This document shows positions 5,756 through 27,256 of a DNA stretch of 64,000 bases, one piece after another. The translations under genes were made by a program, and so were the position numbers. The stretch comes from Schizochytrium sp. TIO01. Lineage: Eukaryota; Protista; Bigyra: Labyrinthulomycetes. Location: the NCBI GenBank assembly GCA_004764695.1, contig SMSO01000032.1:4620483-4684482 (forward strand), written 5' to 3'. The stretch's first letter is position 1; every line of letters begins with the position of its first letter. Below the pieces are notes generated by a model. It had not been told where the DNA came from. It did not search any database and was given only the letters and a program-made list of their open reading frames with translations.

Positions 5756-5936
5756 TCTCAGAAGCTCCTCTCGTTTTGTTGTTTAAAATGTTGGGAAAGA
5801 AAGATGATAAAAAATTGCAATGCAAAAAGTTAGTGGAGGGGGGGCACAACCTTAGGCAAGGCCAGACCTCGAACTGGAGCAGCTCGCTGCTCAACCAGCA
5901 GGCCTTCATCGCAGCAACATCCTGTGAATTGGCACC

Positions 5937-8900
5937 ATGTGTCGCCTCACTGCCTACACGGGGCCGTCGATGTGCATCGCAGACCTCGTTACCCGTCCCG
6001 AGCGCTCGGTCATTCGCCAGTCTTTCGACGCCCGCGAGCGTCTTGGCGGCAGTGGTGGAGAGGTCTACGATATCGGCGCCCTTAATGCCGACGGATTTGG
6101 ACTTGGCTGGTACTCCTCCTCGTCATCATCATCCGCTTCACCCTCGCCCTGCGTCTTCACCGACGTTGGTCCTGCCTGGAATAATCGCAATCTCGTTAAT
6201 CTCGCTAGCAAGACCTCAAGTTCACTAGTCTTCGCACACGTACGAGCTGCTGGCCCGGGCATGGGCATTTGCACCTGTAGCTGTCACCCTTTTGAATTCG
6301 GCCGCTTCCTGTTCATGCATAATGGCCAGGTCTCCAACTTTGGCGGAAACGTGCGTCGGTCTTTGTTGGCTGGGCTGCGGTTGGAGGCCTTCAATTTTGC
6401 GCTGCGCAACAGCTGCTCAGACTCAGCACTGGCTTTCGCAGTCTTCATTGATCAGCTAGAGGACGGACTGCAAGAGGTGTCTCCAGCGCAGCTGCAAAAC
6501 CTGTTGCAGGAGACTATCAGGAGGGTTTGCGCTGCATGTGATCGGGAGCCCGAGGGAGGTGTCTCGCTCCTCAACTTCGTCGTCAGCGACGGCAAGTCCA
6601 TGGCAGCTACAAGGTACGTGCACGTACACCCGAGCAATCCAAAAGAAGTTCACGATTCTGCAAGGGCAGCTTCGCTTTACTTTGGAGCGGGATCCAGGTT
6701 TGAGCCTGAGGAAGAGACCAGAAGACAGCCCTCAAACTCATTAACTATGGAGTCAGATGGTTGCAATGCAGCAAGCTGCGGGTCAGACTGCAGCAAAGCT
6801 GCCATTCGGAGGTATCGCATGGCAAGGACAGATGTACGTGATGAACTGGTTATCATCACATCAGAACCGCTTACGGAACGTCGGGCGGATTGGATCTCAA
6901 TTCCACAGAACCACTTGGTGCTCGTAAGCCCATCAAAGAATGTCCTCTTGTCACCTATTGTGCAGGATAAGGAGCGGTGCTCTCCCGCAAGGAGGGAAAA
7001 CGCAGCACAGTTCGAACGTGTATTAGAGCGCATGGCACTTGCAGGCAAGGCTCGTCCTTCGCTTCTTACCGCATCGCAGACCAGACAAGCATCCATGCGG
7101 AATGTTGATTGCAATGTTGTGACGACAACATCGCCCTCTAGCGCTATTCTTCTGAGTCAGGATTCACCATTAAACATACCTAGAGGCATGGGCTCTGGTC
7201 GCGGTTCTGCGTTTAACCTCTTTCTCACAGATCAAGATGTGTCGCCTTTGGCCCTGGCTTCTCTTGAAGACGAGCAAAACTCCATGTCTCCTTTCCCAGA
7301 ACACACAATGTCAGGGTCCCATGAATCTGCGCTGCTTACAATGGCCACGTACAAGCATTACCTATTCTCTGCAGACAGTGCAAGCCCAGGATACTTATGC
7401 GTGTGGGATCTATCCGTCTGGAAGCGGCTCGCCAAAGTCTCCATTGAGAACTCTGGCACATTTGCCACTTGCGTGGACTCTAACCTTATGCGCCTCTATG
7501 CGTCATGCAGTGACAACTCAGTCATCGTTTGGCAAATTGTAGAAACGGACAACTCAATAAGCCTCGAAGAGAAGTTCAAGATCTTCTTTCCTCCCATCGG
7601 ACACATTATCTCGCTTGCGCTCGATGAGAAACGCCAGATTCTCTTTACCGGTTCACAAGATGCATGCATGCGAGCGGTGAATCTCAGCATCGAGAATGAG
7701 GCACCGACGGGATCTACTTTTATGGTACAGGCCGAAAAACAGCATAACTGCGGCGTTGGTATGTGGAGGCACGTCCTTGTGGAAGGTAGACCCGAGGCAG
7801 GGTGGCGAGCTAGTGATATCTTTGTCACCTCACATCTGTCCTACATTCATCGCATTATTGTTTGCGAGAACTTTGTAGCTAGTGGTAGCAGTGACGGCGT
7901 AGTCAAAATTTGGGACCGTGAGTCTCTGAACCTTATCACTTCACTCGTGGGTCATCGTAGTCGGGTCATGTCACTTACAGCGGACGAAGATTCCAAGTCG
8001 CTTTTCTCAGGTGGGCTCGACGGAACGATTCGCGTCTGGGACATGGAGACTTTTGTGTGCCGCAGGGTTCTCATGTGTGGTAGCCCTGTTCTTTGCGTCA
8101 TGGTGGCGCGGGACACTCGCTCAATTCTGATTTCAAGTCACACTGATGAGTCTATCTCCGTCTGGGATCTCCAAACCATGCAGATAACGGACTCTTTCAG
8201 AAACAGATCGGGTCTGGTCTTCAATATGGGTTTGCCTGTTGTTAGTCCTGAAGATGAATCTTCTGTAAACTTGAGTAGACGCGTGAAATCACTTGTTGCC
8301 TGTGCTACATCAACAGGTGCTGTGGTCTCGTTTAACTTACATAAGATGCAGAAAACTGCGGTGCGACGCGGGTCCGGCTCATGGCGTCAGGGATCTGCTG
8401 CGTCCTCTATGGAACAACGTTTCTTGTCAGCTGAGAAAATCTTCAGCGAAGCATTGGCCCCGGATGAGCGTGGGGAAATCGACTTGGATGACGCGCTCTT
8501 GCAGTCTTTGCATGAGATTATTCGCATTCGTACAATTTCAGCCCACCCTGATTACCACGAGGAGTGTTTTTTCGGAGCCAAGGTTATTGCCAGACTTTGC
8601 GAAAAGGTTGGGTGTGCTGATGTAAAACTCTGTTATGATGAGGTAGAACGTACCGACGAAACTATCCCAATTCTCCCGGTGGTTCTAGCTACGCTAGAGG
8701 CCAATGCTGGTGTGGAAGATCCATCTACCCTCATTATTTATGGCCACTATGATGTTGTTGGAGCTGTTCGTGCAACCTGGAATACCGACCCTTGGGAAAT
8801 GATTGGTAAAGACGGATATTTATATGGTCGAGGTGTAACAGATGATAAGGGCCCATTGCTGGCCTGTTTATTTGCTGCCAAAGCAGTGCATGCAGCCGGG

Positions 8901-9872
8901 AACTTGCGCTGCAACGTCACCTTCATTATTGAAGGTCAGGAGGAAAGCGGATTGGGTCTGATTCAACGTGGTTTTGCTAATGTCATTCAGGCCAATTCCG
9001 AGTTTTTCCACAAACCTTGCGGTATTGTTATTTCTAATAACTACTGGCTTGATGACAAGCGTCCGTGCTTGACATACGGTATGCGTGGTGTGATTGATTT
9101 GGATGTTGAAGTCCAAGGCTCAGACAAGGATCTTCATGCAGGTGTGCATGGTGGGCCAATTTATGAGCCAGCGGACGACTTGATGGCGCTCATGTCCACC
9201 TTTTCTTCCTCCCCCAAATCCCTATCAGCAATTGAAGGCCTCGGAGATGATATCCGTGGTCTCGATCCTGCAGAAATTGAGAACTTTGAGCGCATTAATC
9301 TCAGTGTTAAACACTACACCAAAGAGGTTGGCGTCCCGAAGCTCCGCGTAGAAAACCCTACCTGTATTTTGGCTGCCCGATGGTGCGAACCTTCACTCTC
9401 CATCAGTAGCTTGACAACCTCCAATGCTGGTCAACATTTCCGTCGTATCCCTAAATCTTGTTCTGCTCGCCTAAGTCTGCACTTTGTGCCTGACCAAGTA
9501 CCTGAGAAATTGGTGGATGCACTTCGTAGGCACTTGGAGAATACTTTCCAGGAACGTGGGTCTGTCAACAACCTACAGATCACCGTGCGACAGGTTAGTG
9601 ATTGGTGGCTTGGTGACACTACGAGTCAGCTCTTTAAGGTTGCAGAAGCAGCGATTCAATCTACATGGGGTGTGCGGCCTCTCCTTGTTCGTGAGGGCGG
9701 TTCTTACGGTGGTATATCAGCATTTCTTGAGAGTGCCTTGTCTGCGCCGGTCTTGCACTTGCCCATGGGTCAAGCTACGGATAGTGCTCATTTGCCGAAT
9801 GAGCGAATTAGTGTAGAGAATTTGCTTCAAGGTAAGCGTGTTGTGGAAGCACTTTTGTCGCGCCTTGAATAA
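5937..9872 (+). CDS. Fusion of a Dug3/EgtC-type class II glutamine amidotransferase, WD40 repeats and a Dug2-like M20A peptidase domain (putative glutathione-degradation protein)
   Basis: GATase motifs: MCRL (Ntn Cys2), NADGFGLGWY, PAWNNRNL, LVFAHVRAA, CHPF..FMHNG, LLNFVVSDG, ITSEPLT. WD40 motifs: SGSSDGVVKIWD, GH...SGGLDGTIRVWD. M20 motifs: YGHYDVV, GRGVTDDKGP, EGQEESG, DLHAGVHGG, REGGS, DSAHLPNE. Confidence 0.93.
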   Translation: MCRLTAYTGPSMCIADLVTRPERSVIRQSFDARERLGGSGGEVYDIGALNADGFGLGWYSSSSSSSASPSPCVFTDVGPAWNNRNLVNLASKTSSSLVFAHVRAAGPGMGICTCSCHPFEFGRFLFMHNGQVSNFGGNVRRSLLAGLRLEAFNFALRNSCSDSALAFAVFIDQLEDGLQEVSPAQLQNLLQETIRRVCAACDREPEGGVSLLNFVVSDGKSMAATRYVHVHPSNPKEVHDSARAASLYFGAGSRFEPEEETRRQPSNSLTMESDGCNAASCGSDCSKAAIRRYRMARTDVRDELVIITSEPLTERRADWISIPQNHLVLVSPSKNVLLSPIVQDKERCSPARRENAAQFERVLERMALAGKARPSLLTASQTRQASMRNVDCNVVTTTSPSSAILLSQDSPLNIPRGMGSGRGSAFNLFLTDQDVSPLALASLEDEQNSMSPFPEHTMSGSHESALLTMATYKHYLFSADSASPGYLCVWDLSVWKRLAKVSIENSGTFATCVDSNLMRLYASCSDNSVIVWQIVETDNSISLEEKFKIFFPPIGHIISLALDEKRQILFTGSQDACMRAVNLSIENEAPTGSTFMVQAEKQHNCGVGMWRHVLVEGRPEAGWRASDIFVTSHLSYIHRIIVCENFVASGSSDGVVKIWDRESLNLITSLVGHRSRVMSLTADEDSKSLFSGGLDGTIRVWDMETFVCRRVLMCGSPVLCVMVARDTRSILISSHTDESISVWDLQTMQITDSFRNRSGLVFNMGLPVVSPEDESSVNLSRRVKSLVACATSTGAVVSFNLHKMQKTAVRRGSGSWRQGSAASSMEQRFLSAEKIFSEALAPDERGEIDLDDALLQSLHEIIRIRTISAHPDYHEECFFGAKVIARLCEKVGCADVKLCYDEVERTDETIPILPVVLATLEANAGVEDPSTLIIYGHYDVVGAVRATWNTDPWEMIGKDGYLYGRGVTDDKGPLLACLFAAKAVHAAGNLRCNVTFIIEGQEESGLGLIQRGFANVIQANSEFFHKPCGIVISNNYWLDDKRPCLTYGMRGVIDLDVEVQGSDKDLHAGVHGGPIYEPADDLMALMSTFSSSPKSLSAIEGLGDDIRGLDPAEIENFERINLSVKHYTKEVGVPKLRVENPTCILAARWCEPSLSISSLTTSNAGQHFRRIPKSCSARLSLHFVPDQVPEKLVDALRRHLENTFQERGSVNNLQITVRQVSDWWLGDTTSQLFKVAEAAIQSTWGVRPLLVREGGSYGGISAFLESALSAPVLHLPMGQATDSAHLPNERISVENLLQGKRVVEALLSRLE

Positions 9873-17857: not shown

Positions 17858-18604
17858 TTACATGCGCGGAGGTACAACATGAATGGGAAGGACTGGCGGC
17901 GGCATGCCGCTAAAATTGGGAAAAGGTTTGGTATGTTTCTTTTTCAGCACGACTTGAGCATTTGACTCGATACCAGTGAGGGTGATAGTGATGCCAGCAC
18001 GAAGCGTTGTTGCATCATCAAATTCGTCGAGTTTCTGCTCAGAAACTTCAGCTTGAACGTAAGACCCTGTCGTGATATCTGTAGTCTTAGCATTATCATC
18101 CTGGATGATGAAGATGACTTCAGTTTGGGAGATTTGTTGCTGCTCTTGAACAGGTTTTAACGTCAAAATGTCTTGAGGCTGAACCTTGGGCTGCACTACC
18201 TCATTCTTTTCCGTGCCAGAACCGAGACATAGGTTTCGCTTAGTTACCGAGTTGCGATGGGTAGTCGGACATGTCTTATGGACAAAGGACTCTGTGGCAC
18301 GAGCCCAGATGGGTACCCTCCTGTTGTTGTCACGGGTTTCACGGCGCTGCTTCAGTTTAGCAGATTGAAGATTCTGGCGCTTTTCCACCAATGTTTCGAG
18401 CGGACACCCATAAAATCTCTTGAGATTGAGGGGACCTCCAGAAGGTTGATGGTTTGCGCTACCCCGCTTGTCTGCTCGAGCCTTAACGCGAATACCACCG
18501 TTGCTGAATTCCGGAACTAAGTCGCGGACAGGCATACGCGGGTCGATAGACATCAAGCTAAGCTTGCGAACAGTCGTGCGTCTTTCGATGGAGCGTTCAC
18601 CCAT
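17858..18604 (-). CDS. Hypothetical protein (~248 aa)
   Basis: Long ORF with first ATG at 18604 and a TATA box upstream. No recognisable domain. Confidence 0.55.
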   Translation of the reverse strand: MGERSIERRTTVRKLSLMSIDPRMPVRDLVPEFSNGGIRVKARADKRGSANHQPSGGPLNLKRFYGCPLETLVEKRQNLQSAKLKQRRETRDNNRRVPIWARATESFVHKTCPTTHRNSVTKRNLCLGSGTEKNEVVQPKVQPQDILTLKPVQEQQQISQTEVIFIIQDDNAKTTDITTGSYVQAEVSEQKLDEFDDATTLRAGITITLTGIESNAQVVLKKKHTKPFPNFSGMPPPVLPIHVVPPRM

Positions 18605-18883
18605 GATGGATATTGTTGCGAAATGAAAAAAAGTGGAAAGGAGAGTGTAGAGTATCGAGACTTTACACGAGGTCAAGGATAACTCGATAGCTGTTTAGAT
18701 TTGGCTTTGCTGCTTTGCTGCTTTGCTAAGTGCAGGGATGATTTCGAATGCTTGCTTGGAGGTTGCTTGAATCCTAAGTATGGAACTCTGGTTTTGCTGA
18801 CGTTTTGGTTTTGCTGGAATTCGAATTTGCGTGTTTGAGGCTTGGCCTTTGACTTTCCAAAGACTCTAAACGAACTTAACATG

Positions 18884-18892
18884 TTTTATATA
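18884..18892 (-). promoter_or_regulatory. Putative TATA box (TATATAAAA)
   Basis: Lies ~280 nt upstream of ATG 18604. Confidence 0.4.
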
Positions 18893-21885
18893 CCCTTGGA
18901 TTGAAATGGATTTTGTTGTTTTCTGTGCTAACTATGTTGCAGCTTGTAGTATACAATAGGAAAGACTTACGCAAGACCATGGCGTTACAATGACTTTTAG
19001 TTTCTCGAGGGGAAAAAATGTTCCTTTTCTTAAAGGGAAGCTGAGAAGTATCATAAGAGCTGGGGTTCTAAGAGCCACAAATACTCGCGAGCTTAAATGG
19101 AAGCATATGAGGATATGAATGTGTCTGATCATCTGTGATTAGAAGTTATGATACTGTAACGAAATCTATTTTTCTTGAGATTGGCTTGCAGTCATGCAAC
19201 CGCTCTAAACAAACACGTTACATAATCTATTTCAACAGATTTTCATGAACATTGCAATAAAATCGTATTGCTTCTCTTTTGACCCTTTATACACTATCCG
19301 ATTATATGTTATTCTATAAAATGAAAGAAGCTCTTTAGAATTAACTCTTTAATTAAAAGGTTCGGAAAAAATTGAAAGCTCATGGGACAGCAATAACTTA
19401 AGTATATATTTATCATCATAAATTCCACTTTTAAAACTCATCATAATCCAGAGTGAGGGCATTCAAATTATTAAACACCATTTGAATTGTGATTCTATTT
19501 TTCACATAACATTCAAAGCGTCAACCCAAGTTTATTTTGTTTTAATCAGAAGAGGTTAGCTCTTACTCCTAAATGCCACTATCTATGTATCATTTTTCCT
19601 TAAACCCTCCATGCAAACTACAGCGAAAAAGATCTACATCAATTTCACGTACATCTTGGACTCTCTATTTTTAAATTAGAGAAAATAAGAATTCTGATTA
19701 TATGCAGATATATGGAAGCAACTAACTTTAACGCTTTTTTCGTAATATGTTGAATCAAATTGGCGAATAGGAGGAATCAAAGGACATAGACAAATGTTAA
19801 TAAGGTTAAAGTCGAATTTATTATGACGAATATCGTAACATGAAACAGTTAAATCAAGATCTATTTCATTGCAACAACTCTTTTTCTCAAAGTTGATTTT
19901 TGCAGAGCTGCCCCTTTTACATGTTTACTTTTTTGTATTATTTTAATGTTGTCTCCCCTGAGATCCCAGACGTTTTTCTTGTTTAACTGATAAGCAAGTT
20001 TGCGAGAGCCAAACTTGTTTCCTCCCTGGGACTAGAAGAATGCCTTCAGGTTCATTAATAGTGGAAATAAGTCATTGTCGGTTTTTACCTGTTACTTTTA
20101 CTTGTCACTTGATAGTCGTTACTCGTTACTTGTTACTTGTTACTTGTTACTTGCTATGCATCATCGACGAACAATATCTGTATGATACTTTAACAACCGA
20201 ACTACTCACAAATTGACGTGCGGGCGAGAGAGTTTTCGGTAACAACTTGGGTCACAGCCACTATACTATAGCCAGGTGATTTGGAAAGGAACTGAACATG
20301 CCATATTATTCTTCAAAGCTAAGACTAGCAAAAGCGAAACAGTTCGTATCGATCGGGAAAATAAATTTTAATTTTTGGTTATTAGGTTGCAACGCAGTTT
20401 TCCTTTTTTGCTTCTATTGCGTTCAAAAGGAAGAGAACTTATCTCCGTAGTTTGTATAATACTTATATACTATAATTGACAAACTCTGGGATGTATTTCT
20501 CTGGTAGCAATTCAGGTCATGTGTAAATTGCAGCTTCATTAAAAATTCTGGCACTTAATCTCGTTGCCTAAACAAGTTCAATATCTTCACCACGCTGTCA
20601 ATTTTTTCACCTGCTCGTGGAGTACGTTAAGAAGAAGTGCTCGTCCCATGCGAGCAGATTATTCCTGGAGACTTATTAAAAAAAAGTAGTAGCTTGAGCA
20701 GCTGAATCGCTGGACCATAATTTGTATTTGACACGCTGGTCTTGTCCAGCAAAAATATTTTGTCTTCTAATTTTAATTTTCCGTTTGCTTTAAAGTTAAA
20801 TAGAAGAGTAAGACCCTCCTCAGGAAGGTGACTCGTACCACCATGGTAACAAAGGTGAAATCTCTACACCCTCTTCCGGTTCGGCATTCTTTTCTTATCA
20901 GTGAGAAAATTACTTATGAAACAAGCCTCAACTACACTTAATTGTGAAGAAATTCTATGGCTAGCAGATGCCCCTGAAAGTACATCATAAGAAGGGAAGT
21001 TTGTGCACTGTTCAAGAAGGTGCCAACCAATAGACCATTAAAGAAGCATGAAGTTATGAAGTTGGCGAATGACAGAATAATTTGGATAGCGTCCTCACGT
21101 GTATCCACAGTTCTTGCTACCATTATTATAATATTACTCAGCGAAATAAAGCATGATTAAACAAAGGATGTTCGAGCTTGCCAATGAGTAACATTCGTAG
21201 GAACCGAGTCCTTTCTAATCAGAAATGTCAAAGGCTACTTTGTCATGCACAACATGATATGAATAAATGTCAACCTTTTCAGGTGCATCTGTGCGGTTGC
21301 TTCCCTCATAATTCTTGTAGGATACTCATGACTTCTACAAATGTCAGGATGACCGAAAGTCCATTACATAAACGCCGACAGCAACTACTTAATTCCAATA
21401 CTTTTCGCTGAGAAAGAAAGCAGTATCCCTTTTCAGTACTTTTTGCAATCTGAGAAACACATGTTTCCAATATAATATTGTCGGTTTTGGAGTATAGAGA
21501 TAAAGGTTTGTGGTTATTTACGGGTCGAAGTTGAAACTAAATTTAGAATTTACCCGCTTGTTCTCTCATCGTGCGAACACCTCAACCATAAATACCGCCA
21601 ATGAGTATTCGAGGTTCCAGATTTATTCTGGACATAAGTTCTAACGAAAAAACGCATCAACTTAAAAAATCATTATTCTAAAATTACGTAATTCATGTAA
21701 AAAAGATATTTCGATTTTCTTATCAGCAGATTTTGAGAATAGCTAGACCTTCCTTGAAATATGAGGCTGTAGAAAGCTTAGAGATTATAAACAAAAACAA
21801 AGAACCAAAAAGATGAAAGTTATGATATTCATTTGAATATTGTATATATCCGTTTGAGGTAACTCCAAACTCAACAAGTTAAAAT

Positions 21886-21959
21886 GTCTCCGTGGCCAAG
21901 TTGGATAAGGTGCCTGACTACGAATCAGGAGATCGTGGGTTCAAGTCCCGCCGGAGATT
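21886..21959 (+). tRNA. tRNA-Arg(ACG)
   Basis: Acceptor stem GTCTCCG/CGGAGAT; anticodon arm CCTGA-CT ACG AA-TCAGG; T arm GTGGG-TTCAAGT-CCCGC; A20 present; T5 run just downstream. Confidence 0.97.
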
Positions 21960-22254
21960 AAATTTTTCAATGCAAATAGAAAGTTGAGAAACTTTCACCA
22001 TGTTTTTTTTTGTTGTTGTTGTTACAAAAAATATCTATACTTGTTACTTTTTTATCTGTTTATATAACTACGCATAAATAGGTCCTAAACATTTTTTAAT
22101 TTTTAATTTTTTTTTTTAAAATTAATATCTTAATGAAAGAAAGAAAAAAAAAAACTAATTTCAAAATAGACTCCAAACCAAACACTCAAATGATTTCAAT
22201 CTTTTAGATTGGACCCAAACTATCGAAAACTTGGGGACTAACCTATAAAACTTG

Positions 22255-22713
22255 AAAAATTTTCAATTCCTATGGCGAGAGAGTGGAGCTAAGACTCAAT
22301 TCCGGGTTAGAAGACTGACCCGCGACTCGAAGACAGTTCTTAAATCATGGATAGATTGGTACGCCTCTGGCAACACGGATGACAGGAGCGACTACGTGTT
22401 TGTTTGCATTTTTGAAGAACCTTGGAGGTTCTGAGTCTGTCGTGGACGGGGTACCATTCATTGCAATTCTCTCGGCAAATAACCAGTTTTTACACCACTG
22501 GCGGTGGAAAGTTCGGCTTTGTGAATGAGCGCTTGGCGGAAGCCAACGAGCGACTCATCATCCGAGTTGTCTCAGGTTTAAGGTCACTTGCTGAGACGCC
22601 TAACTTCCAGTCGAAGTTCTTTGATAGTTTGAATTGAAGACTTGTTTCACTTGTAGTCTTTGGAGCTTGGTGGTTCCTTGGCCATTCCATTTTCTTACCT
22701 AATCTCCACTCCT
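22255..22713 (-). ncRNA. Candidate structured ncRNA of unknown family (strand tentative)
   Basis: 8-bp closing helix (22281-88/22704-11), about ten internal helices and an H-type pseudoknot. TATAAA lies ~25 nt upstream on minus, with a T5 run at the end and no internal T4. Confidence 0.5.
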
Positions 22714-23028
22714 AGCGAAGACCTGAGAAGGTATCGTTTATACGGAACAGTCAGGAAAGTAGTGCATAGTACACAAACATTTTTTAAAATGTACAAAAAT
22801 TATGTTTATTAGTTGTGATTTTATTATTATTTATTTTTAAATTTATTTTTAAATAGATATATTATGTAAAGATAATTCATTCTTTATTTATATTAACTAT
22901 TAATTTTAAAATCAAAATTAATTAATATATTATACTATATTTATAATAAAAAAAGGTTAACAAAACAAAAGTAAAGAATATCGGATGGGTAAAAAACTTA
23001 TGCATTTTTGTTTTAAAAAACAAAAGTT

Positions 23029-23102
23029 AATCTCCGGCGGGACTTGAACCCACGATCTCCTGATTCGTAGTCAGGCACCTTATCCAACTTGGCCACGGAG
23101 AC
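23029..23102 (-). tRNA. tRNA-Arg(ACG), identical second copy
   Basis: Exact reverse complement of 21886-21959, followed by TTTT and TTTTTT on minus. Confidence 0.97.
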
Positions 23103-24792
23103 ATTTCTTGTTGTTTGCTAGGGTCCAGATGGTATATATAAAGATAGGAATACCAAAGTGAGTGAGGTACTGGAGCTCTGGGCTTGATACCTTCCTTTTA
23201 GATGACCCGGGCTTGAGTTCCTTCGCGAACCGCCTCGCGAGCCTAGAGATGATTTTTGGGACGGACTACAAGGTACTTTGCACGCACAGGCATATGGTGT
23301 TCATGTTCATGACTTGCCTGAGTAGCTCCTTTCGAAAAAAAGTTACCCTCCCATTGCTTCTTGATATTCAAAGCCAGGATTAACTCCTCGAGTGATGCGC
23401 CGGGGTGAGTCATGAAGGCCACTACTCACGAAAGAAGAGCGGAGAATTGATGATCCCGTGGAGTTAATGAGTACCAGTAGAATAGTTGCAGGTTTCGCGA
23501 TTCACTCCCTTTGGAATATGACACCCTTGGGCACTTATTCGTTGATGTGGAATCCTGTCTTGTTTTGTTTGGCTTTAATCTCGTACGCATGGCTAATTCC
23601 ACTTGCTATGAAAGATTGCCATGCCATGACTGATTCAAGCAATTATGTTTGCAGCAGGACATTATGATTGCCCAGCTCGCACTTTCTTACAGGTTCGTTC
23701 ACGGCACCCATAACGCACCTAGTAGGTAGGAAACTCTAGGTAGCTTCGAGCAAAGTAGACCCAATGTGCTGTGTTTTTCTAATTATAAAAGTTGCCATCA
23801 TGACGATGTACCTCGTTTGTTCCTTCAGCAGAATACAAAATCTGATATCTGGTCACCAACTTGCTTGAACTATCGACTTGAGTTATCGAAACCTAATTCA
23901 GGTCTGCTTTTTAACTCGAACGAGTTTATGCGGTCTCATGGAAAGAACGCATTCGTTGCAGCTTCAAGTTCCCTTCAGGTGCTGCAAAAGTCCTGCCAGC
24001 ACGTGTGAAGAACGATCCGGCAAGGTGAGATACGAGGCTTTCATTGTGAACTTTTATCGCTTGCTGCTGTCGCCGCAGATGGTCTGCTCCTCCTACCCAC
24101 CTCAATTCCACACAACGCTTCGTGACACGAGGAGTGGTGCCCAGGCAGAAGGTTAGTTAGTTAGTATCCAAACCACCGCCCGTCTCCAGGCCCGCACAAG
24201 CAACTTGTCTGCTGCGCTGCCATTCCATCCACACCCATTCTCGTTCTCACTCGTGCGTGTTCCGCGATCGATTTCGGGAGTCTCCGTACTGTAAACCAGG
24301 GAGACATCCGGATTACAAGTAAGCCACTGCTACCGTTGTGCCTAGCCGCACGCCTACTGCTCTTGCCTGCGTAAGGATTCCAGGAATGGCGCCCTGCGCA
24401 TGCATGCATTCATTATGCGCTCACTCTGCAAAGGCACCAGAGGCAGCCAAGGCCCATCCGCGTGCTCTCCGTACCTCTTCATGCGCTGCGTATCTTCAGA
24501 CGGAGGCGCCGAATCGCCGCGAAGGCTGTCTTGACGGCTCAAATGCAGAGCATCGTCGCCGCCGTTTTCACGGCACCAAAGAGCCTTTCTTTGTTTCTGG
24601 GTCAGCAGAGTGCTAGTGAAAGTGATAGCTGCGCCGCTAGCTCTGCTGCTGCTACCACTCGCAGCCATCGAAATCCCTAGCAGTGGGACATGTGCCTCCC
24701 TTCCCTTCGCACTTCCCTTCGAACCACAGAAACAGTATGTATGAATGAGGCAATCAATCAATCAATCCAACAGCAGCAGAAGCAAGCAACGT

Positions 24793-24822
24793 TGCATTGC
24801 ATTGCATTGCATTGCATTGCAT
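24793..24822. repeat. (TTGCA)n repeat
   Basis: Seen directly. Confidence 0.9.
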
Positions 24823-25798
24823 GAGTGAAGACCGGCAGCGTAGTACACGTGCGGCCTCGTCGAGCCAGAAAGTGGAGGTGGGATCGTTCTGGGAGGCGAA
24901 GCTGCCTGTCGATGCCGTGTCGTGACGGCCTGGAGGCAGAAGACCTCGCGGCGAATGCGATTCCATTCATTTCATCAATTCTTCAGGAACTCTGTCGCAC
25001 TAGCACATACATACTAAAAAACTAAATTAATAAGTTATAAATTAAATTAAAATGTAGTGTTAAAAAAAATATATATATATATAATAAAATAACAACAATT
25101 GAAAGCAAAAAGAAGGAAAGGAAAGATATCTTTCAAGCTTGAGATTGTTCGAGCCGAGGCAAGCGCCCTAAGTAAGCACTTTCAGCGGCGTGGAAGGAGT
25201 CCTCGCTTGGGTAGGACCTGCCAGAGGTGCCTATGCTTCGTCACGAGACCTTTCTTCTCGTCCGTATTTGTGTTCTCAACTACTTAATCGTATAATCAAA
25301 AAGTCAAACCCCAAACAGGCGCTTAAAGTCTTTCTTTTCCCTGTTTCATAAGTAGGTAAGTCAGGTAAGTCTACCTATTTGCCTATGTACTATATATAAT
25401 GTATCTTCTGAACATCGCAGTACTTTTGTTACATTGGGCGTGTATTAAGAAGCAGCAGCAGCAGTTTCTATGCATGACGACGACTTCTCTGACTCCAGGG
25501 CATGCATGGGAAACTCAGCGTTATGGCAAAGCTTGCTTGCCAGGTGCCGCCGCAGAGGACCGATCTCTGTCTTGCCAAGGGATATGCCGGTCGGTCGGGT
25601 CTTCCTCCGCAGAGACTGCGCCTCGCTGGCTTGTTCTGCACAGCTTTGGACGTCTGCGTTGCGTTGCTTTGCTTTGCTTTGCTTTGCTCTCCAATTCTTT
25701 AGCTCGAAGCAGCGTCTCTATCTGCCTAGGCAGTCCTAAGCTGGTTCTACTGATTAATTGATTAGTTGAATAAACAAATTAATAAATAAATAAATAAT

Positions 25799-25799
25799 T

Positions 25800-25873
<74 letters not shown>

Positions 25874-25902
25874 CTGTGCTCTCTCTCTCTCTCTCTCTCT
25901 CT
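25799..25902. repeat. (ATCA)n followed by (CT)n microsatellites
   Basis: Seen directly. Confidence 0.95.
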
Positions 25903-26842
25903 ACTAATCTCAAAGATCTACTTTCATTCAATTATTTAACTAAATTCTATTCTCAAAATTAAAGACAAATAAATTAAAAAACAAGAAAAGGAGGAGAAAA
26001 AACCAAAAAAAAGAAAAGAAGATAAACCATAACAGCGAAATAATTGATCACAGCAAACAAAGCACAGAACAACCAGAACATACAGAACAACCAGAACAGA
26101 AACCTGCACTCCTACTAGCCACTAGCGCACTCCTACCATCGCCTAGCAGAGAATGAGCGGCTCGAGAGCTAGCTAGCTAGCTAGCTCTCTCTCTCTCTCT
26201 CTCTTCGCGGCGCCCTCTCCGGCAGGCGGCCGACGCGCTCGGCGTCGCGGGCGCCTGAGAGGCCTCCCTCCGGCCTCCCTGCCTCCCTCCCGGCCGGCCG
26301 GCCGCCTGCCCGGAGCAGCGCCGAGCGAGGGCGCCGCGGCCCCGTTTCTGCGGCAGCGCATTGGCGGCGGCACTGTTCCGCGACTGGGCCAAGGGCAGGC
26401 CAGTAGGCGCGATTAATCACGGTTACCTGGCGCAGTAAGCGTGATTAATTGCGGCTAGCGGGAGCCGCACGCTGAGACGGCTCCGGGAGGGAGAGAGCCG
26501 CCAAGTGGAGAATGGGGCGCGCACACAGTGGAGAATGGGGCGCGCACAGTGGAGTATTCTGGATAGCGCAGTTGCGGCGGCGCGTATAGTTGACTTGCGG
26601 CTGCAGCGGAGAGAAGAGAAAAGATCGAGGATTGATTTCTTCTTGTTTGGCTGCGCTGCCTTCTGCTTCTTCTTCTTTGGAGCCATCTTCTGCGCCTGCG
26701 AGTTTGCGGCTGATTTCTTGGCCTTCGTGGCCTTCTGGCTCCAGGCGGGCCCCTCCTGAGCAGAGGTGAGAGGCCTCGGCGGCGCGTAGGGGCTTGCGAA
26801 GGGTTGGCGCGGCGGCGAGAGAGAGATCGAGTGATTTTCACT

Positions 26843-26930
26843 CAGATTTTACTCTGATTTTTTACTTACTTACTCTGATTTTTACTTACTCTGATTTGCT
26901 CTGATTTGCTCTGATTTGCTCTGATTTAGT
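26843..26930. repeat. CTCTGATTT-based tandem repeats
   Basis: Repeated (CTCTGATTTG) and (CTCTGATTTTTACTTA) units. Confidence 0.85.
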
Positions 26931-27256
26931 TTGATTTATTATTATTTTTCTTTTAGCTGAGGCAAGGGACTAAGGGGCGGTAGGGAGGCTTAGGCGGCGA
27001 AGAGGAGATGTTGAGAGGGAATGAGAGGAAAAGAAAGAAAGTAAAGTAAATTTAGGAACAATTAGGGCGCAATAGGGAGGGCGAAATGAGGAGTGAGGAA
27101 GAGGGCAGTGGCGCAGAGAAGAGGAGGTAGTCCCGGATCGAGGTCGTGCGGCAACAGCAGATTGCGGCGGCTTGACGGAGAGCGAGCGTCGTCGAGGTTG
27201 TCCTTGGACTAGTTTGTTGAGGCAGCAGCTTCTGTTTCTAGTTGGGAAGAAGAAAA

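Follow-up and report, generated by a model that had tools for sequence, protein, structure and literature searches.

To our knowledge, large structured RNAs of eukaryotes other than rRNA, RNase P/MRP RNA, SRP RNA, snRNAs and telomerase RNA are rare, and multicopy families of them are rarer. The GC-rich RUF6 RNAs of Plasmodium and the Class I RNAs of Dictyostelium are 60-135 nt long and present in a few tens of copies or fewer, and RUF6 is an RNA polymerase III (Pol III) product with A and B boxes. Fanzor RNA, according to the available part of one report, has a conserved scaffold that runs to a sharp right end and is followed by a copy-specific guide of 14-15 nt (PMC13565253). LORE-TEARS of Aurantiochytrium are described, in the available part of that work, as units of 366-529 bp arranged head-to-tail beside the rDNA at chromosome ends (10.1101/2023.06.15.545109). 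The ncRNAs given in the accessible text of a published Aurantiochytrium annotation are only tRNAs, rRNAs and 9 snRNAs, with SINEs at 0.01%, and a family of the size reported here therefore seems to have been missed (PMC12258536). Searches of the literature on thraustochytrids, Aurantiochytrium, Schizochytrium and Labyrinthulomycetes yielded no description of such a family; supplementary ncRNA tables and repeat libraries may list it under an automatic name.

The window, a 64-kb stretch of Schizochytrium sp. TIO01, is gene-dense eukaryotic DNA with Nup155-like, asparagine synthase, bystin and peroxidase frames; the best named match of the peroxidase frame is from Hondaea fermentalgiana (79%). 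The initial annotation had proposed a highly structured and novel or very divergent ncRNA in a Pol III cluster, between two tRNA genes. The position was correct, and the neighbors are identical, convergent tRNA-Arg(ACG) genes at 21886..21959 (plus strand) and 23029..23102 (minus strand), for which membership in the unit is not established. All 16 of the helix arms proposed were present in the sequence, as were TATAAAA on the plus strand (22244-50) and TATAAA on the minus strand (22742-37). The GC-richer island was likewise confirmed, with 47% GC at 22271-22720 compared to 23% on the left and 34% and then 13% on the right, and it is the sole such island in the window. As had been described, the minus strand of this copy has no internal T4 and has a T5 at 22259-55, and the plus strand has two internal T5 runs, at 22409 and 22487. 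The plus strand also carries a T4 at 22690 that was absent from that description.

The element lies nearly exactly midway between the tRNA-Arg genes: position 22281 is 322 bp away from the 3' end of one gene, and the distance between 22711 and the other gene is 318 bp. This placement may be due to chance, nucleosome spacing or tRNA-guided placement. The tRNA-Arg pair forms a 94-nt inverted repeat (95%), and both genes have a TATATA stretch approximately 30-45 nt on the 5' side (21836-21885 and 23103-23152) and a CAACAAG motif directly before the gene. The surrounding 8.5 kb (18700-27200) has no frame of 150 codons or more, the rest of the window being gene-dense, and the left part of this stretch has 32-38% GC. 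The nearest coding-like frame to the left is a 278-codon frame on the minus strand (17858-18694) that has no Pfam match. Farther left, in a single frame of 1,314 codons (5928-9872), a WD40 propeller and an M20 peptidase are joined to a glutamine amidotransferase-like N-terminus; the frame presumably resembles the fungal Dug2/Dug3 glutathione-degradation proteins, here in a single chain.

Folding of the window copy alone was compared to dinucleotide shuffles, a test that the initial annotation had asked for. For the whole copy, z was -1.96 on the minus strand, a value equaled by 1 of 100 shuffles, and -1.36 on the plus strand, equaled by 9 of 100. When trimmed to 22274-22716, z was -2.53 on minus and -1.73 on plus (80 shuffles each), and the best sub-domain, 22508-22600, reached -2.85 on plus and -2.60 on minus. 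This copy alone folds modestly better than its shuffles (z -1.4 to -2.5), and its excess over chance is weak. The window copy by itself folds slightly better on minus than on plus, and a 10-bp helix between two conserved blocks (22475-84/22582-91) contains two G.U pairs on the minus strand only. An 8-bp hairpin at 22303..22322 with a U.G pair has 8 pairs on plus compared to 5 on minus, with a pair probability of 0.99 on plus. The strain or assembly of the window copy is missing 15 bases after 22461 relative to orthologues in 3 sequencing runs (X1, X5 and X18, described below), and these extra bases form a hairpin that is absent from the window copy. The site of this 15-base insertion is flanked by a short direct repeat.

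An Rfam search returned no family at the gathering score, in agreement with the region having been called unannotated; at E values up to 10, there were 7 sub-threshold matches of chance level, the best with an E of 0.22. A protein relic, which had been named as an outcome that would speak against an RNA, was not supported, since none of 15 nearby frames reached the Pfam cut-off, including the 4 frames over the element, and the one frame searched for protein homologues had none.

A second copy of the element was not found within the 64-kb window by blastn or nhmmer. Public runs containing part of the region numbered 21, from 8 studies, and none is on record as RNA, which carries no information on expression. 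Four of the 21 were aligned to 21500-22810 at 80% likeness, and all four consist of contigs; X1, X5 and X6 were guessed to be RNA, and X18 was DNA-like. The contigs aligned numbered 59 for X1, 12 for X5, 41 for X6 and 244 for X18. Single-copy depth in X18 is about 105-119, and long X18 contigs with a copy were at this level (94-119). The summed X18 depth was about 2,800 at 22512, 11,900 at 22658 and 30,600 at 22672, corresponding to roughly 26, 108 and 278 copy-equivalents, values that are inflated by contig overlaps. By region, copy-equivalents were 2-6 in the left blocks, about 19-30 in the middle and about 100-280 at 22660-22700. At least 51 separate X18 contigs share the 22660-22700 block with the majority letter at 22658, and at least 41, among the rows listed, exit into separate right flanks. 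Single-copy depth of the long contigs and separate right flanks indicate that the copies are dispersed and not tandem; no tandem joint was present among the 15 joints listed of 28. The element is thus one diverged member of a dispersed multicopy family in a thraustochytrid, rather than a single RNA gene within a local group of Pol III genes.

Relatives were also sought in other collections. Exact-pattern scans returned 21 loci in metagenomes, 17 in prokaryotes and 0, 7, 0 and 4 in viral contigs; all 49 were chance matches, with a longest alignment of 28 nt. The plasmid and phage collections had no match to the element, and no syntenic contigs were found among viral contigs by means of the neighboring genes.

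Copies were 80-90% alike in blocks at 22239-74, 22318-49, 22389-413, 22460-89, 22495-560, 22580-612 and 22647-710, and the spacers between the blocks could not be aligned among copies. Break points between copies recurred, with 22580 in 5 of the 15 joints listed. The upstream block, 22239..22274 on the plus strand, is common to other copies and contains TATAAAA, likely a core promoter, whereas its T-runs could alternatively be a minus-strand terminator. Matches to it come from two additional X18 contigs and a single X1 contig. The bin depths predicted for copies covering exactly 22239-22274 (41.1, 112.5, 158.4 and 237.3) agreed with those observed (41, 112.5, 158.4 and 237.3), which indicates that the TATA block travels with the unit. 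The left block at 22318..22349 (plus) is present in about 5-6 other X18 copies, as judged from the depth at 22349 and from bin depths. The U-rich block at 22389..22413 (plus), which ends in T5, is matched by another copy in X1, X6 and X18, in which 22413 is joined to 22506; it is close to an Sm site but is preceded by C, and the Sm pattern is not satisfied. The highest depth in all four runs was at the best-conserved block, 22660..22711. To the right of the element, an A-rich tail contains non-A letters common to copies and is therefore templated.

Orthologous contigs cover the element in X1, X5 and X18. Over 413 nt of the element, the X18 orthologue differed by no more than 4 changes, with the three unlisted changes entered as inside it, compared to 15 changes in 499 nt of flank (p = 0.036, a contrast confounded by AT content).

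The letters of the family distinguish between the strands. At nine sites most X18 copies differ from the window copy, and these majority letters were placed into 22455-22716. The nine letters changed the ensemble energy by -10.2 kcal/mol on the plus strand, an effect that random sets with identical kinds of base change equaled in 0 of 60 and in 3 of 200 cases. On the minus strand the change was +1.1 kcal/mol, and 21 of 60 random sets were as good. Likewise, z shifted from -0.37 to -2.43 on plus and stayed near -1.2 on minus. These data favor a plus-strand fold and do not stabilize the minus strand that the initial annotation had preferred, and from them we infer that the family is read on the plus strand.

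With the majority letters, a six-helix junction, its helices abutting, is predicted on the plus strand at 22459..22658; it is not the best fold of the window copy. Its closing helix is 22459-66/22651-58, followed by 22467-74/22502-09 and 22510-16/22562-68 as the second and third helices, 22569-75/22591-97 and 22598-600/22609-11 as the fourth and fifth, and 22612-18/22643-49 as the sixth, which carries a distal stem, 22619-25/22633-39. Helix probabilities were 0.85-0.99, and that of the distal stem was 0.59. A long predicted arm at 22521..22561 is capped by a GGAA (GNRA) tetraloop. Seven of the nine majority sites lie in stems, all seven becoming Watson-Crick pairs, and the other two lie in a bulge; the letters in favor of this model are also those from which it was built. 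Four minor variants outside model building (22618G, 22633, 22654 and 22672) still pair on plus. Among 23 listed variants that were scored, with 26 more variant rows beyond this listing, 6 are unpaired and 17 lie in stems. If the partner stays the same, 11 of the 17 retain or regain a plus-strand pair and 6 break one, with a compensating partner visible for 2 of these 6. By eye, two double-sided changes were seen, C-G to U-A at 22473/22503 in X5 record 19 and A-U to C-G at 22624/22634 in a 7-contig X18 consensus of low agreement (0.56). Counting against the plus-strand fold, forcing the window copy into it costs approximately 17-24 kcal/mol.

Three helices proposed earlier (22296/22631, 22602/22613 and 22637/22655) are absent from the family-letter fold, and the majority letter at 22658 breaks the last of them. 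It had also been proposed that a match to a dispersed repeat would speak against an RNA. The element does match one, being one of many dispersed copies; however, this repeat keeps base pairs across copies, and the match therefore does not argue against a structured RNA.

The most conserved block, 22660..22711 (plus), forms a weak hairpin with a 5x5 pyrimidine-rich internal loop, the last stem of which competes with the closing helix proposed by the initial annotation. Since 22660-22700 is hardly structured (z -0.47), it appears to be kept for its letters. Within it, CUUACCU (22694-700) matches the splice-site-pairing end of U1 snRNA, a likeness that may be due to chance.

The predicted RNA body, 22275..22712 on the plus strand, is about 440 nt long (15 nt longer in the orthologues of three runs), its limits being taken from the GC island and orthologous contigs and its strand from the family fold. 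The orthologous contigs had depths of 5.4 in X1 and 3.6 in X5, with none in X6, contig depth being a poor measure of level; another copy had a depth of about 880 in both X1 and X6. Contig ends were compared among the longest 32 of 394 rows. There, 17 contigs from the guessed RNA runs reach the 3' block; 5 of them finish with the match itself, whereas 12 extend past it, and 9 of these 12 stop within 69 nt (median about 45). Of the 6 such X18 contigs in the same listing, 1 finishes with the match and the remaining 5 extend for another 220 to 11,141 nt. These ends give a weak hint of a transcript end directly right of the element. Cover was absent at the tRNA gene and left flank (21500-22160) in the three guessed RNA runs and in the right flank up to 22810 in all four runs, gaps in contigs that prove nothing. 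On the left, the orthologous contigs of the guessed RNA runs extend as far as 22172 in X1 and 22238 in X5 and span the TATA box, and a transcript starting on plus behind this box leaves them unexplained.

TATA-like boxes are present on both strands of the locus, and A-box and B-box consensus patterns were found on neither. The two T5 runs inside the plus strand equal in length the T-run that comes first after the plus-strand tRNA gene and are kept in other copies, which makes Pol III unlikely; a full-length plus-strand RNA would be a product of Pol II. On the minus strand, an internal T4 occurs in many other copies (22507 G>A makes up 44% of X18 depth) and in one orthologue. The Pol III origin in the initial annotation was thus not supported on either strand. 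What remains of its novel or divergent ncRNA is a structured, non-coding sequence that belongs to no Rfam family and is present in contigs guessed to be RNA, but not a lone, minus-strand, Pol III gene.

These observations bear on a Pol III RNA of many copies that would start near 22712 on the minus strand and end in the T-run at 22259-55, the conserved block serving as its internal promoter. The window copy suits it, having TATAAA 25-30 nt upstream, a T5 at the end with no T4 before it, and the better fold on minus; A5 is kept there in other matching copies, and on minus 8 bases of the conserved block are identical to those at the start of the A box in the neighboring tRNA-Arg. The family speaks against it: its letters fail to stabilize this strand, T4 interrupts it in those other copies and the orthologue, the full A- and B-box patterns fail, and contigs guessed to be RNA extend 17-170 nt past the supposed start. 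We regard this explanation as very improbable. The minus strand also has a box C with no downstream box D. A spliceosomal intron on minus (donor GTAAG at 22698, CTAAC at 22309-05 and acceptor at 22289) was set aside because the supposed intron is best covered in the guessed RNA runs and no GT..AG was present in the 15 joints listed of 28; GTAAG occurs 87 times in the window. The splice-like motifs at 22289-22698 sit at the inner ends of the closing helix proposed earlier, and would leave an intron of about 410 nt between complementary mini-exons.

The contigs also raise the scenario that the structured region is a cis-acting 3' element, either of one mRNA family whose members are short and variable or of unrelated host mRNAs, with a role in stability, localization or translation control, and that the window copy is a remnant whose frame has been lost. 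Each of the two shared left blocks finishes with an ATG (22272-74 and 22346-48), beyond which the copies differ, and contigs of other copies in the guessed RNA runs extend left by between several hundred nt and 6 kb, with right ends shortly past the 3' block. However, the frames behind these ATGs have 6 and 11 codons in the window copy, the 4 frames over the element have no Pfam match and the one searched has no homologue. By eye, the variant sites also included indels of 1-2 nt and followed no codon rhythm, and sharing of several distinct left blocks indicates that a whole unit is repeated. An mRNA element is therefore unlikely.

Several of the same data could instead be produced by a non-autonomous mobile element, in which the structured plus-strand 3' domain would be recognized in trans by the protein of an autonomous partner. 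Variants include the 3' end of a non-LTR element, a solo LTR, and an IS607/Fanzor omega-RNA end left after internal deletion. Dozens to hundreds of dispersed copies and a steep climb in conservation toward one end are expected of such an element. Copy lengths differ, with contigs of about 0.6-1.2 kb, some copies that end contigs of 4-6 kb, and a spacer that measures 48 nt in the window copy but 372 nt in X6 record 25. These lengths and contig ends, and the uncompensated pair breaks of the window copy, are also compatible with a mobile element or with the 3' part of an mRNA. Neither a target-site duplication nor a terminal repeat nor a poly(A) tail was found in the window copy. The longest direct flank match was 7 nt, within the 6-12 of shuffled flanks (22120-22285 versus 22700-22812), and the longest inverted flank match was 6 nt and consisted of A/T runs only; target-site marks can vanish from old insertions. 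IS607 elements, in the available part of their description, have neither terminal repeats nor target duplications and insert behind G-rich DNA (PMC13565253), and the 278-nt left flank has a single run of three or more Gs, a G4 (22233-36) lying two bases before the shared left edge. Stand-alone copies of Fanzor RNA exist in Chlamydomonas, as far as the accessible text goes (PMC10530073). However, homology between copies continues for 20-30 nt to the right of the conserved block, where a copy-specific guide of 14-15 nt would be expected unless the element ends farther right, no GG occurs in the 30 nt listed behind other copies, and the matches of those copies stop short of the G4. In addition, 7 of the 8 left loose ends listed are still element-like by eye, so that the rightward rise reflects conservation more than 5' truncation. 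The block-wise conservation is unlike neutral decay from one master, and a Pfam domain was found in none of the 15 nearby frames. Taken together, a mobile element is a possible but doubtful source of the family.

The explanation that we prefer, with a probability of roughly 0.45, is that the element is a weakly represented, drifted member of an undescribed multicopy family of structured plus-strand RNAs, probably transcribed by Pol II. Each copy would be a self-contained gene for a non-coding RNA, with transcription starting about 25-30 nt behind the shared TATAAAA and the RNA ending some 20-70 nt past 22710, in the A-rich stretch. The six-helix junction would be held by selection on base pairs and may serve as a protein-binding scaffold, and the near-invariant, weakly folded 22660-22700 could be the working face, read through its sequence by a protein or a partner RNA. 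Because the promoter block travels with the unit, the family would grow by duplication at the DNA level, with birth and death of members. The window copy, having lost pairs at several sites and the 15-nt hairpin, is probably a weak or dying member. A bolder version is a long shot: thraustochytrids would abundantly transcribe 50 to several hundred such RNAs as a new class of eukaryotic RNP, either six-helix scaffolds on which CUUACCU pairs with 5' splice sites in the manner of U1, or stand-alone Fanzor guide scaffolds.

The feature is real and larger than was flagged: thraustochytrids carry a seemingly undescribed family of structured sequences whose members are likely RNAs. The host is of an industrially used and genetically tractable kind of protist, and many diverged copies per genome are ready covariation data, from which the fold could be settled using existing assemblies. 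Should the family prove to be mobile, it would be an unclassified element with an unusually elaborate RNA end.

The copies likely yield a non-coding, folded RNA that lies outside the catalogued RNA families. The initial annotation had seen no match to RNase P/MRP RNA, SRP RNA, U3 or spliceosomal snRNA, and this agrees with the lack of Rfam matches and of the family motifs. RNase P/MRP RNA is comparable in size, in a possible closing helix and in a CR-I-like GGAAAGUUC at 22506; here, however, this motif is mid-molecule and altered by a majority letter, and the element is multicopy. It was rejected, with no CR-V partner or MRP motifs and no Rfam match at E values up to 10. SRP RNA, U3, spliceosomal snRNA, C/D snoRNA and hammerhead retrozymes were also rejected, with no Rfam match and with helix-8, Sm and hammerhead patterns absent, and an ENE-type triple helix, H/ACA pocket, group I/II intron cores and an HDV-like ribozyme did not fit when consensus features were compared by eye. 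Telomerase RNA of Diaphoretickes, in the available part of its description, resembles the element in size range and in a TATA-type external promoter (PMC8287931). The Aurantiochytrium telomere is given as TTAGG in the available part of another report (10.1101/2023.06.15.545109); the element has no 8-nt template for TTAGG or TTAGGG on either strand and is multicopy, and telomerase RNA was rejected.

Among repeats, LORE-TEARS are set apart by the available description, the element being single in gene-rich 64 kb with its other copies dispersed. A solo LTR or MITE was rejected, with no TG...CA or longer terminal inverted repeats and no target duplication at the predicted ends. SINEs and non-LTR 3' ends are similarly dispersed, with a structured 3' region, an A-rich tail and uncompensated decay of single copies; unlike them, the element carries an upstream TATA block and a templated tail and has no sign of 5' truncation. 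A SINE was rejected, with no tRNA, 5S or 7SL head, no A or B boxes, no target-site duplication and a tail that is templated. Fanzor/TnpB omega-RNAs are closer, being structured over about 200-250 nt, multicopy, conserved toward one end and at times without a nuclease gene, in the accessible parts of two reports (PMC13565253, PMC10530073). In contrast to these, the element has no apparent sharp right end with a guide, no GG in the 30 nt listed behind other copies, no nuclease remnant beside the window copy and no Rfam match. Compared to the RUF6 and Class I RNAs, the element is longer (about 450 nt or more), has a multi-helix junction and matches neither A and B boxes nor an Rfam family. Nevertheless, it shares with them dispersed paralogues, conserved motifs separated by variable spacers, structure and restriction to one lineage.
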